Below, one piece after another: positions 4,201 to 61,200 of a DNA stretch of 64,000 bases. A program made the position numbers and the translations under genes. The first letter of the stretch is position 1, and each line of letters opens with the position of its first letter. Origin of the DNA: Tubiluchus corallicola (taxonomy: Eukaryota; Animalia; Priapulida); the NCBI GenBank assembly GCA_030141605.1, contig JAQGDQ010000093.1, positions 62,001 through 126,000 of the forward strand, written 5' to 3'. The notes under the pieces were generated by a model. It worked only from the letters and a program-made list of their open reading frames with translations. It did not search any database and was not told where the DNA came from.

Positions 4201-7200
4201 CACGCTTCTGTTGATTTTCTAAAAATTTGAAATCTTGCAATAGTTCTTCTTTTGCAAGATATAGAGGACAGACTGCAAATAAAATCAAGCATCAAAACAA
4301 CATCATACAGATTTATGCGTTCAACTCAGTGGCGTCACTAATAACGGAGCAAGGGGGAGCAACAACTCCCCCTAGGCACATTTTTCAAAATTGGCACCTT
4401 TCAGCAACCAGGTTAAAAGGGGTGTGCATATGCGAGCATGTGTGAGTTGTCAATAGGGCACAAGCAAACAAACACCCGCTGTAAAATTTATAACATTACA
4501 AAATGACCAATGTAGATAACTAATAGACATATCATTATCATAACAGTTGACAACCCATGCTGTCCTAATACCTAACTAACAACCAATTCACACTACTGGA
4601 TGTTACTTGAATTGAAAGCAGCGTGCACAATGTGTGTGTAAACAATATGCTTCAAAACAAGTGCAGTCGATTCTATGAACAAGCTACACAGTTAATCTAC
4701 ATAAACTTAGACAAAGAGGAATTAGTATTAGCACGTACAGACCTACTTATTACAAAGTGTGTATTGCGAACAAGTACAAGAGTATTACGTACTACAAAGT
4801 GTGCAAGGCAAACAAGTACAAGAGTACTACGTACTACAAAGTGTGCATTGCAACAAGTACAAGAGTACTTCGTACTACAAAAGGTGCATTGCAAACAAGT
4901 ACACGAGTACTACGTACTACAAAGCAGGCATTGCAAACAAGTACATGAGTACTAAGTTCTTCAAAGTGTGCATTGCTAACAAGTACAGGAGTACTACATA
5001 CTACAAAGTGTGCATTGCAAACATGTACATGAGTACAATATACTACAAAGTGTGCACTGCAAACAAGTACATGAGTGGTACAATTAAAATGTCATTTATA
5101 TCGTACCGAGAAGGGCATCAACTTCATCCAGATTTCCATTCACAGACTTCTCACACATCTGTAGTAAGCGGAAGTGAGGAGACATCATGATTGGCAAGGA
5201 AGCTGTCGCTGCCGCCGGAGATGATTGTTGGTTTCCTGTGGTGGATCGACCGCACAGCATCGGCACCAAATTGATTGCGATCTTATCGCTTTCCTCCTCG
5301 GATCCAACCGGCTGACTGAACTCATCTTCAATTCCTAATCTTGTTTCCACGGCAACCAGCAAACCACTGTAGAAATAAAAGCTTTTCAATTTCACAGAAA
5401 GAGAAGCGGCTACAGCTTAAAAGATCCTTTAAAGAATTTTCCATAGAAAAAGAAATACTTGGAAGCACCTATTATTACAGCCTATAAGAACCATCTTGTC
5501 AACAGACAAAAGACAACAACAATATGAACAAAAAGAAATTAGGACCCAGTAAATTAGTTTACTTTAAGTTACAACTGAAACAGTGATGCAGCTAATAGGA
5601 AGCAAGGGAAGCAACTGCTCCCCCAACACATTTTTTTCAAAATTGGTGCCTTTTCAATCTGCCTTATTACTCTATTTGACCAACCTGTCTCCCGTGTTTT
5701 TGAAACATACGCATTTACACAACTCATTTGTCAAGGCTGACTGGTTGAAAAGAGGGTCAAATTGCACAAACTCTAAAACTCTAATATGTTCTGATCACAG
5801 TGCCTTTTTTATATTTTTGCCCCCTTAACTTTAGAATATAGCTACACCCCTGAACTGAAACAAGTACAATGTGTCACATATATAATTATTGATATTTTTT
5901 CCAAGAATTGATTTCTTATAAATGTAGCTCCATATCTTCCTTTACTGAATTTCCTTTGAAGGAAAAGAGATCCAGCAATTCCATCATTAACGTAAGTTGT
6001 ATTTTCTGCAACTATAAGATATGCAAGGTAATCCAAGAAAACCATTTTTCCAAACTAACTTGAAGCTCTTCGTCCCAGTAGAGGACACTAGAGGCATGAT
6101 CATCGTGCATCCTAATGTCTCCTCGTTCTAAATGCGTATATATGCCCAAGAAGTGCTGCTAGGACGTTTTTTGTGCACAATAAGCAAAAAACAGTCATTT
6201 TTGGAAGTTTCCTCCTGCGTACAAAAACCGACTTAGGTGCACTTGGTTGGAATCTTGGACAAAAACTTTTACTTCTTTGGAAAGAAGAGAAACCGGGTTA
6301 GACGATAACGTGTGTCGCTTTAACAAACGCTTCTAATGGGATGAAAGGTTACGAGTACTTTGCGGAACGTTTTTTCTGAAAGACCCTGTATGATTGCAGT
6401 GCAAATTTGTCATGCACTGGTGGACACATTCACTCGTGCACAGTAAACAAATGCCATAGTATGAGTCACAATTATCTCAAGCAAACAAGCATTCGTTAGG
6501 GTCACAGCCTAAAAGCACGGCAAATGTACGACCGTGACAAATTACTGATGACAATAGGTAACCATTAATGATCGCCAATGCTGCTTAGCAGAGCCCAAAG
6601 AAAAAAAAAACTGCCAAACAGCTGACAGCACTAAGGTAGCTTGCACAGTGTTGCTTTCAAAGTATGTTTTCTAAAAACAGTCGACAAATGCATTTCAAAT
6701 TTTACAAAAATGACTGAGAGCCAAATAAACTTAAATGCGTAAAACTTAGAACTTTTCAAATTTGATAAAACAGATGTAATTTAGTAAACTTATGTCCAAA
6801 GAAAACTGATGTGCAACTAGAAAAGTCTAATTATGGTGCACACACAGTTGCAAAACCTATTCATGTATGTGGAAGTAACTGTCTAAATGTAGAACAACAT
6901 AAAGACATATTTCAACATGGTAATAATCGTTTGAGTAATAGCAAAGGTTATAAATGCTGACCTACTAATAACATGAATCAGAGTTTTAACTACGAAATAC
7001 AGCTGAACATATCCGGATGGGATGAGGCCACCACAAATCGAGTTATGGTTTTATGCTTGGACGTGATCTTTCGCATCAATGCTACACTAATGATTGCCCT
7101 CAACGTCCTCGTGATGATCGCAGTGATCAAGTTCGAGAATTTGCGAAACAATGCAAACTGGCTTATTTTCAATATGTCTGTGGCCGACATGTTGGCAGGA

Positions 7201-58200: not shown

Positions 58201-61200
58201 CATCTGAGCATGTTTAAATGCCTGAAATCAAAGTGCAGTGTGTGTGTGTACTAAAAAGAAGAAAGCACGAACATACTGCATTTACAGATGCACGTAAGCA
58301 AGACTAAGTGCGAAATCATAAAATGAGTATACACTCATATCTTGGTTTTCTGGACAAAAGCGGGGAGACATCGGTCCGAATTTGCCGACTGTCCACATTT
58401 ACCGATACTAAGCTAATAAAGTAGGCGCCGTGTATTAGACTCACAGTAATGTAGAATCAATCGTCCAGTTTTCTGAAAAACGTCTAGTACGAGCCGCTCC
58501 TAAGCAAAAGTATGTAAAAACTGTTGGCAACTAACTTAAATAACTCTGCATAATTGACTCTATATTTTTTCTACAAGACGTAAACAAAGTAACGGTCCGC
58601 CAGCTAGCGGTCAGCTCGCGAAACAACAGATGTCTGTAGTATGCGGGACTTTTTAATTAAAAAGTTGTCCAATTCTTCCGATATCAGTAAAAAGCACGGT
58701 CCGACAAACCGAGATATGAGTGTATTACTACGCTGATAACGTGTTTTCTTCAAATTATAATTAGTGATTATACAGCTGACACTTTAAATGTTTGCATTAT
58801 GTAATAGAATAAGCGTGATAAAAATCACTTTTCAGTCATTATATAAATTTCAAGTAAGAGAGTTTAGCATGCACTGTTTGATATGCAATGGCTTTATAAA
58901 AATGCAGGTAGTCGTCGACTTATAATGTGACATCACAGTCGGTTTTGGCAGATCGGTCGTCAGACAAGTTGGACGCCCCTGCACGCAAGATGTGCGTGTA
59001 TGTGCACTAAGTATGACGGTGCCTAAGATGAATATATCAAAACGTACGGCAAATTAACATTAATTTGCTCAAAAAATGAAAGACGAGTCATGACTAGTTT
59101 TGTATAATTGATTAATTAAGTTGTGGTCAGGTTGTAAAGTTGTAAGTTGCATAGGTCGTAGGTCGACAACAATCTGCACACCACATCAATAACCGTACCA
59201 AAACAAACAGCAAAAAACATTTGACAAGTTCTTACAGTAATCTCCTGGTTTTCGCAAGGAAATGAAATACATGCGGATCCTCGAATACCAGGTGGTTACT
59301 GTGTAATTGAAATCTGAAAAGAGTTAAAGATGACCAACTACTAAAATAGCCGTGCAAGGCTATGAAAACTAGTACATCCATTCCTAAACAATATAGTTAT
59401 TAGCAGACTAACAACCAAAGAACAGCTAATGTTGAACTCAATGTAGTTTCGTGTTAGAGTTGACTGTGCATAGAGTTTCACTTCAAAATGGAAAACATCT
59501 TAAGCAATAAGAGTAAATTTGATGTCTCGGCCGCTTATGGTGTCGAGAATTTCGTGCAAAAAGGGCCAAAAGTCTTTTAAAGGACCCTACTAATACACAA
59601 ACGGGTAGGGTGGAATTTATGGTATTCAAACAAGCGTAAACCACCAGTTCCATTCAAAATAGGCACTTTTCCACAATGACAAATGCGCTATAAAAATATT
59701 TAGCATTTGTTGACTATCTCATTTTTGCCTATATCAAACAATGGAGAAAGTCAATACAATGGTAACATCACCCACGATGTTGTAATTAATACTGAGAACT
59801 CAAAGCCACGCAGTTTCACCTGAGCTCTAACCAGTTTATTTCTCAATCGGCCTAGCCGAAAAGCAACCTAGCTTTAATCGCACCAGCCACTCGGTGATGG
59901 GAGTCGAGCTAGCTGACATTTTTGCTGGCTGCAAAGATTATTGCTCGGGCGATAATCACTAGACACTGTAGATCACTGGTTGAAATACAGCATCGCAGAT
60001 TGGCAGTCAGATTGTGCATATGCTTGGCAGAGATGCTAAACTTTATAAATATTTGAACGTCAGTTCAAAATGAAATACACAAATAGGCAACGTTAGTCAC
60101 ACGTCTGGGATAATTTGGTGTTTCCGTATTGATTCGTCGGTAATCAAGATAAGCCTCGCCAAGAGTTGGATTAAAATTATATTTGCAATATATCCATTGC
60201 TTGTTTATAATAATGAAAAATTGATCTCTAATGCATTATTTTAATTTGTATATCAGCTTTTTTCTGTGTATAAGCAACACAAATTAGTTTAAAAATTTGT
60301 CTCCATAATTTAACAGTTAACTAACAATTTTTCATTTGTTTAGTTAACAAAAAATCATAGCTTTAGCTGACTTAGCTAATTTACAGTGTGAGTCATCTAA
60401 TGTAGTAGCAACTGACTCAGCTTCAGCAGAGCTAGCCGATTTACTGTGAGTCAGCTAATGGAGTAGCAACTGATTCAGCTTCAGTCTCTATTAATACTAA
60501 AACCAAAGTAAATGATGCACACCAGGTCATATGACAGCTGCTCATTGTAGACAGATAATCATTTAAAAACAAAAAAGAGCAAGTACTGGCACCTTCAAGG
60601 CAAAATAATATAACAAAGTTTACATGCTTGGGTGTATTTGCACCCATTCTAACGGCAGAGAGTTAGGCATAAAAAATTCCATTCTACAGGAACTAAAATA
60701 CGAGTGTACTCTTAACGCACTAGTGCTGCCCCAATTGTCAGTAATGATAACTATTCACTTACCTAGGAGGCTTTTCAGTGACATCGGTGACAAAGAGTTC
60801 AGTGAATCGTTCCTGCTCCTTATGGCTAATTAGTTTCTGAAATAGTCAGTAAATAAACTGGCCAAACAAGACAAAGCAGAAGTGGGACATTATACAGTTT
60901 GTAAACCGAACAAAATCTTACAGAATAAGCTTTTTCATAGTTTCGTTGTGCTCACGCATAGTTGCCGTAGGTCAAAGGTTAAGTGTACTACAGCAACACG
61001 TCTTATCACAACTGTTACGTGACATGTGGGTAAAGCAAAGCCGTCTGCCACGTCAGTTGTTTTATGTGGACTTTACTTAGTTATGCATCAGTCTGTGCGC
61101 ACAGTGATTTACTAGCTGGATATTCCTTGGGAATAAGAAAAATGAACTTGGTAAAGTTCCAGCTAGTTGTTAAAACTGTTACTATTACAATAGCATGGGC

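Follow-up and report, generated by a model that had tools for sequence, protein, structure and literature searches.

Exons of the DNA-repair gene FANCD2 lie near both ends of the stretch of DNA analysed here (the window: 64,000 nt of contig JAQGDQ010000093.1, numbered from its first letter), and 55,396 nt separate the two groups. This gap holds nine receptor genes, all on the strand opposite FANCD2. The layout raises two questions, namely whether the gap is a single FANCD2 intron, and how the receptor genes came to occupy it. At the level of sequence the nested layout is very probably real. For its origin, we place somewhat better than even chances on a history in which about three founder genes landed in the predicted 55-kb intron and multiplied in tandem, giving six gustatory-receptor-like (GRL) genes and three G-protein-coupled receptor (GPCR) genes antisense to the host.

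The FANCD2 model consists of eight minus-strand exons around the predicted intron:
63475..63556, minus strand: FANCD2 exon, first in the window, 82 nt; colinear spliced alignment with AG/GT ends, own identity weak (5-7/27)
62210..62308, minus strand: FANCD2 exon, 99 nt, phase 0-0; profile match E 6e-4, tblastn matches
60763..60836, minus strand: FANCD2 exon, 74 nt, phase 0-2, counterpart of human exon 22; rank 1/926 among candidates, consensus splice sites
5367..60762, minus strand: predicted FANCD2 intron, 55,396 nt, GT-AG, phase 2; splice inferred from sequence
5107..5366, minus strand: FANCD2 exon, 260 nt; Pfam FancD2 38.6 bits, human FANCD2 E 1.9e-6, Priapulus FANCD2 54%
4157..4272, minus strand: FANCD2 exon, 116 nt, GC donor; splice-site check and profile match
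3580..3912, minus strand: FANCD2 exon, 333 nt; Pfam FancD2 53.7 bits
2193..2328, minus strand: FANCD2 exon, 136 nt (132 nt with an alternative GC donor); profile match and spliced model
1070..1215, minus strand: FANCD2 exon, last in the window, acceptor 1215 or 1201; profile match and spliced model

No stop interrupts the 415 codons of the spliced model, and the gene extends beyond the window at both ends. Its introns measure, in order, 1166, 1373, 55,396, 834, 244 (GC-AG), 1251 and 977 nt, the last being 991-995 nt if alternative splice sites are used. The gap is thus about 40 times the next largest FANCD2 intron in the window. The exon coordinates and phases, the GTAAGT donor, the gap length and the 244-1373 nt range of the other six introns, all given in the initial annotation, were reproduced. 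Two features of the short introns are noted in passing: the 244-nt intron (4156-3913, minus strand) has a GC donor, and the intron after the exon that begins at 2328 has an in-frame GC-donor option at 2196 with acceptor 1201. The exons on either side of a candidate 64-nt FANCD2 exon at 62754-62691 join in frame when it is left out, and it was therefore rejected.

Both exon open reading frames (ORFs) tested against Pfam FancD2 pass its cut-off of 27 bits (53.7 and 38.6 bits), and the best PDB match of a FANCD2 exon ORF is human FANCD2, residues 690-756. When the 260-nt exon was compared with 1.84 billion representatives, 11 matches had E<=0.001, led by Priapulus caudatus FANCD2. Five homologues were used for the FANCD2 profile; P0002-P0004 (low-complexity) and short fragments were left unused (4/11 representative matches). 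The eight-exon model aligns with each of the five as a single BLAST high-scoring segment pair spanning the junction (E 7e-68 to 2e-32), consistent with the earlier proposal that one FANCD2 gene spans the array. The three exons upstream of the gap, taken alone, match four of the five homologues (E 8e-5 to 4e-11) and reach E 0.58, at the matching place, with the Priapulus model, which is divergent in this stretch. The multiple alignment shows no loss of homologous sequence at the junction; extra residues occur there only in the Lamellibrachia row, as an apparent internal repeat. A word-indexed protein search with a FANCD2 exon returned nothing at E<=0.001 among 688 candidates, so such searches are very insensitive here.

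In a FANCD2 tree of six rows, none of them arthropod or nematode, the window's gene groups with Priapulus (support 91/90), while uniquely shared residues do not single out Priapulus (10 vs 14, 12, 9 and 3), which makes the assignment to this lineage tentative. The Priapulus model (P0001) departs from the other homologues at about residues 505-531, just upstream of the same junction, and has no counterpart of the 74-nt exon; a long intron annotated wrongly at this point may be the reason.

The two exons that flank the gap fit each other. Specifically, exon 60836-60763 starts in phase 0 and ends in phase 2 at the GTAAGT donor, and exon 5366-5107 opens, likewise in phase 2, after an AG acceptor. 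In human FANCD2, the acceptor variant c.1948-16 implies an exon beginning at c.1948 (PMC3388349), and the variant c.2022-5, placed in intron 22, implies that the next exon begins at c.2022 (PMC11270283, where the exon 22/23 wording is inconsistent). Derived from these two variant names, human exon 22 is 74 nt long and runs from phase 0 to phase 2, at the same place in the protein as the 74-nt exon here. The junction thus appears to match human FANCD2 intron 22 in position and phase, which bears out, as far as two variant names allow, the suggestion of an ancient intron position. The 74-nt exon is below the reach of the profile alone; it ranks first by homology among 926 phase-compatible candidate exons, with a score of 72.7, and the FANCD2 frame is broken if it is skipped. 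The splice-site matrix used to compare candidates was trained on the window's 19 introns, the 55-kb intron among them. Should the 74-nt exon be wrong, the intron would still be very long, as the match of the 99-nt exon at 62.2 kb is significant in its own right.

The initial annotation had named further FANCD2 exons between the receptor genes as a finding that would speak against a single intron, and none was found. The profile gave six matches at E<=6e-4 among 2849 six-frame pieces of the window, all of them known exons, and the next best piece had E 2.8, so the gap holds no FANCD2 exon or second copy visible to the five-homologue profile. All nine guest coding regions lie inside 5367-60762, between two consecutive host exons and with no host exon among them. 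FANCD2 would be transcribed through the array and the gap removed as one intron.

Six of the nine guests encode GRL proteins, each in three exons:
13268..20831, plus strand: GRL1, 463 amino acids, exons 13268-14458, 19845-19934 and 20721-20831; Pfam 7tm_7, gene model, motif
23477..25512, plus strand: GRL2, 445 amino acids, exons 23477-24622, 24872-24961 and 25411-25512; Pfam 7tm_7, gene model, motif
26982..31627, plus strand: GRL3, 464 amino acids, exons 26982-28169, 30062-30151 and 31511-31627; Pfam 7tm_7, gene model, fold
33683..37100, plus strand: GRL4, 454 amino acids, exons 33683-34849, 36400-36489 and 36993-37100; gene model, motif; exon 1 alone is below the 7tm_7 cut-off
42886..45876, plus strand: GRL5, 445 amino acids, exons 42886-44034, 44895-44984 and 45778-45876; Pfam 7tm_7, gene model, motif
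51586..53670, plus strand: GRL6, 453 amino acids, exons 51586-52749, 52922-53011 and 53563-53670; recent GRL5 duplicate

All six share one architecture: the first exon measures about 1.15-1.19 kb and the middle exon 90 nt, the third is short, and two phase-0 GT-AG introns lie near the 3-prime end, much as general descriptions of the family have it. Membership in the GRL/7TMIC family was judged by the criteria of Benton et al. 2020 (PMC7746228). The products, 445-464 amino acids long and free of stops, fall within the family range of about 350-500, and their alignment has seven hydropathy peaks. Every one carries all four positions of the motif (T/S)Yhhhhh(Q/K/E)(F/L/M) of transmembrane segment 7 (TM7). 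Pfam 7tm_7 is the top family for all six first exons and is above its cut-off for five, and the top Atlas clusters for GRL3 are gustatory receptors, at 0.95. Fold was examined for one GRL of the six: a model of GRL3 exon 1 (pLDDT 69.8, TM7 not included) has insect odorant receptor, gustatory receptor or Orco structures at fold-match ranks 1-10, with TM-scores of 0.44-0.59. By every sequence test run, the six genes are GRL/7TMIC members. An intracellular N-terminus is implied by the fold match only and, by analogy with insect gustatory receptors, the proteins are likely ligand-gated cation channels in chemosensation.

The likeness to animal GRLs and arthropod gustatory receptors extends over length, seven hydrophobic segments, TM7 motif and fold, and perhaps to the 3-prime phase-0 introns, whereas identity to the solved 7TMIC structures (DmGr64a 8ze0, DmGr43a 8jm9, BmGr9 8vc2, MhOR5 7lic and Orco 6c70) is just 8-14%. 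Word-indexed searches, which are of low sensitivity, gave no relative at E<=0.001 for GRL3 exon 1 (3345 candidates) or for the six-exon alignment (5416). A design with 3-prime exons shared between GRLs was rejected, as exons 2 and 3 are separate for every GRL and no additional first exon turned up.

The other three guests are intronless class A GPCR genes:
6973..7935, plus strand: GPCR1, intronless class A GPCR, 320 amino acids; Pfam 7tm_1 113.5 bits
10649..11542, plus strand: GPCR2, intronless orphan class A GPCR, 297 amino acids; Pfam 7tm_1 68.5 bits
57104..58081, plus strand: GPCR3, intronless orphan class A GPCR, 325 amino acids; Pfam 7tm_1, 33% identical to GPCR2

All three pass the 7tm_1 cut-off of 30.5 bits and have DRY-like and NPxxY-like motifs; CWxP is present in one. 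The nearest solved structures to GPCR1 are the adenosine A2a, GPR119 and aminergic receptors. GPCR2 and GPCR3 sit on either side of the GRL array and resemble unnamed invertebrate 7tm_1 clusters; the nearest Atlas clusters of GPCR2 are 7tm_1 proteins of about 300 amino acids, commonest in Cnidaria. GPCR2 is in this respect like the lineage-specific intronless orphan class A GPCRs of marine invertebrates, whereas GPCR1 belongs to a separate, adenosine/aminergic-like lineage. Against the olfactory-receptor profile 7tm_4, GPCR1 scores 20.5 (cut-off 27) and GPCR2 and GPCR3 give no match. Among serpentine families, Srsx is passed by GPCR1 only (56.3, far under its 7tm_1 score) and Srx is under its cut-off in both matches. 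Since none of the GPCRs is best matched by an olfactory or serpentine family, the description of the locus as a cluster of nine chemoreceptors is not established: it holds for the six GRLs, which belong to a chemoreceptor family, and overstates the case for the three GPCRs, which are orphan class A receptors with chemosensation as only one candidate role. The count of six GR-like and three GPCR genes, all opposite FANCD2, is otherwise as first described.

No tenth gene was found in the gap. Among 67 further intronic ORFs (>=72 amino acids), 0 have a Pfam match above the cut-off; Rfam and tRNA scans gave no match, and tblastn gave no extra receptor exon. Guest coding sequence makes up 11,025 of the 55,396 nt.

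The GRL genes differ greatly in age of separation. GRL5 and GRL6 are 81% identical in protein and 86% in DNA over 1.5 kb (dN 0.11, dS 0.32), and upstream and intronic DNA is also common to both; the comparison shows one young duplication, by these rates under purifying selection. All other GRL pairs are 24-35% identical. The GRL tree is (GRL1,(GRL2,GRL4),(GRL3,(GRL5,GRL6))), with all three inner branches starred, and fits a history in which a block of two genes was duplicated and one gene was copied again later. The earlier proposal that the GRLs expanded by tandem duplication thus finds support in their paralogy, and the tree is compatible with it. Counting GRL, GPCR1 and GPCR2/3 separately, the sequences call for at least three founder lineages. 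The observation that all nine guests are antisense is true as a strand count and reflects about three founders, for which a shared strand has a chance of 1 in 8; the strand bias is therefore weak evidence. It is likely that the landing of founder receptors and their tandem duplication drove the growth of the FANCD2 intron, which may have been small when they arrived, as the initial annotation proposed.

Several observations weigh against this history or the intron on which it depends. The tandem-tree test is weak, in that 46 of the 105 six-leaf topologies would also pass. The low identity of most GRL pairs means that the array may predate its residence in the intron. The homology lead of the 74-nt exon over its runner-up is 2.3 score units (72.7 vs 70.3), although the runner-up has poor splice sites (acceptor -5.2 vs 10.5). 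Finally, the host strand shows no depletion of AATAAA (65 vs 77 on the guest strand), so read-through by the host polymerase is assumed to need ordinary suppression of cryptic poly(A) sites.

The deep divergence of the GRLs is also what a different origin would predict, in which the genes are truly nested but came into the intron as a finished cluster in one rearrangement, with only GRL5/GRL6 duplicating later. A single event would account for the common strand of three unrelated receptor lineages and for the position of the related GPCR2 and GPCR3 on either side of the GRL array. However, no breakpoint was found, the 67 intronic ORFs include no mobile-element protein above the Pfam cut-off, and a repair gene that gained about 45 kb at once would have taken a larger step than one that grew gradually. 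Chemoreceptors evolve fast, and low identities between paralogues can arise in place, without relocation. We consider such an insertion possible and modestly favour growth in place over it; relatives are needed to separate the two. A more radical explanation, that there is no 55-kb intron because of an assembly artefact or because the exon groups come from different FANCD2 copies, would account for the extreme size of the gap and draws on the richness of the window in dispersed repeats. Sequences from two runs, X1 (containing 0.21 of the words) and X2 (presumed to be RNA, with almost none of them), were compared with window positions 1-20000 and 56800-62400; X1 behaves as genomic contigs, and X2 matches only repeats. 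No spliced joint is among the alignments listed, a result that bears neither on splicing nor on expression. X1 contigs are nearly identical to the window at 10-19 kb and 57-62 kb and differ by 2.5-5% at 2086-2559 and 3165-4305, over the downstream FANCD2 exons. There, 10 of the 13 listed coding differences are non-synonymous, which a diverged haplotype or a second partial FANCD2 copy could explain. In the 333-nt exon, however, the differences are confined to its poorly conserved part, as for an allele. In addition, the window (36% G+C) has no N, neither FANCD2 exon group is repeated elsewhere in it, and the donor 60762/60763 is crossed, with 50 and 107 letters on its two sides, by an X1 contig that matches the window without a difference, although X1 may be the source sample. 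The break also coincides precisely with a conserved intron site, in the same phase and with splice signals that fit the consensus, a result that a misassembly or two partial copies would hardly produce. X1 cover is thin at 6004-8004 and absent at 58109-58295, and neither stretch is spanned by the contigs listed; such holes carry no weight as evidence. With X1 perhaps the source sample and no contig spanning the whole gap, splicing and long-range contiguity are inferred; even so, an artefact is quite improbable.

If the founders landed and multiplied in place, the host polymerase would read the minus strand through the array and the guests would be transcribed from their own promoters on the plus strand. 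On the host strand the splice signals of the guests' 12 introns and their poly(A) sites go unread, which may be why the antisense orientation has persisted; the arrangement would be tolerated rather than selected for joint function. The general pattern is known from Drosophila, where 9.5% of genes are in nested structures and, in agreement with the statement that nested genes are usually antisense to their hosts, 71% of nested genes are antisense (Lee and Chang 2013, PMC3814207). Sense-strand guests there tend to be intronless, for which the authors blame selection against host mis-splicing (PMC3814207); by analogy, antisense guests that bring 12 GRL introns would fit.

The initial annotation went further and suggested mutually exclusive expression. 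A stronger version would have the nesting kept by selection, so that dividing cells silence the receptors, and sensory neurons silence FANCD2, through mutually exclusive antisense transcription. Transcriptional interference as such is well established, and the common strand of the nine guests is what this would predict. Drosophila nested genes are also narrowly expressed (PMC3814207). The correlation of host and guest expression in Drosophila, however, is no different from that of random pairs (median 0.019 vs 0.032; PMC3814207), and so lends no support to selected mutual exclusion. Since the nine guests trace to about three founders and no sequence feature ties host to guests, we regard selected exclusion as improbable. 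A further alternative concerns splicing. Because most fly introns >40 kb are spliced recursively (PMC6110457), acceptor-donor motifs were looked for in the gap. Four YAG|GTAAG motifs lie on the host strand (48984, 39281, 29031 and 23168, 6-12 kb apart) and none on the guest strand (nominal P 0.03). With two looser patterns and a weight matrix P rose to 0.17-0.19 (0.18 for the matrix), and a skew as strong occurred in 9 of 140 permuted motifs; after calibration the motifs are not significant and serve as a lead only. A reading in which an undescribed, deeply diverged GRL expansion of a priapulid relative lies in an ancient FANCD2 intron, and the otherwise compact host copes with the load by recursive splicing at these four points, which arose as the array grew, is improbable. 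If it were true, receptor-repertoire size would be traded against the transcription time of a cell-cycle gene.

Gradual occupation of the intron by tandemly multiplying founders, the history that we prefer, would combine elements known separately. In human, P2RY12, P2RY13, P2RY14 and GPR87 are intronic and antisense in MED12L, and NF1 has three antisense genes in one intron. Table rows of PMC8850418 and PMC12641108 place the four genes together at one locus. Like the present array, it is a tandem cluster of class A GPCRs at a host of housekeeping type, but with one receptor family and a vertebrate host with long introns. The Drosophila nested genes (PMC3814207) also include guests within one long host intron, antisense orientation, conserved hosts and fast-evolving guests. 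They are described as host-guest pairs, and the word 'tandem' occurs 0 times in the available text, in contrast to nine genes of three lineages in an otherwise short-intron host. Several guests per host are found in the ctenophore Hormiphora californensis (2357 nested genes in 1654 hosts, four in one figure; PMC8527503), although in the available text these are not presented as receptor arrays and many are parallel to the host. The literature search gave no report of a gene nested in a FANCD2 intron, no gustatory receptor array inside a host intron (titles and abstract starts), and no priapulid GRL survey; supplementary gene lists could hold GRL counts for this lineage. Priapulids are without mention in the available text of PMC9998090. 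Reported GRL counts outside the arthropod expansions are small, with two in each of two spionid annelid species (PMC11730519), three in Trichoplax and four in Nematostella (PMC5850775); six GRLs at one locus are therefore notable, if the animal is a priapulid relative.

Because antisense nesting is common in animals and tandem receptor arrays are well known, the layout is a large example rather than a new mechanism. Its standout features are the 40-fold size contrast, the mixed array and the divergent GRL set in what is probably a relative of the priapulids. It would represent a natural case in which expansion of a chemoreceptor family inflated one intron of a compact DNA-repair gene about 40-fold, and the cost of nesting (transcription time, mis-splicing and interference) becomes testable by comparing relatives. 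The array also adds six intact and strongly divergent GRL genes from an animal whose FANCD2 groups with that of Priapulus, and serves as a warning for annotation, as gene finders tend to split such hosts.

The window also contains several kinds of repeat. An 890-bp segment is doubled on either side of GRL4 (32218-33104 and 39161-40042, 89% identity); it holds a 185-codon ORF without a Pfam match and is probably a mobile-element relic. The T-A skew is 0.034 in the gap and 0.071 in the short host introns, and strand skews are small and uninformative. Dispersed repeats of 75-82% identity pair 15808-16472 with 46939-47591, 14695-15151 with 58330-58724, and 40180-40365 with 63917-63730; several of them, among the pairs at 15808, 14695 and 40180, have very high depth in X1 contigs. 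Minisatellites at 4743-5076, 9967-10315, 30914-31313, 46053-46596 and 55866-56200 have periods of 42, 74-76, 59, 35 and 48 bp, respectively, and give rise to several long spurious ORFs.

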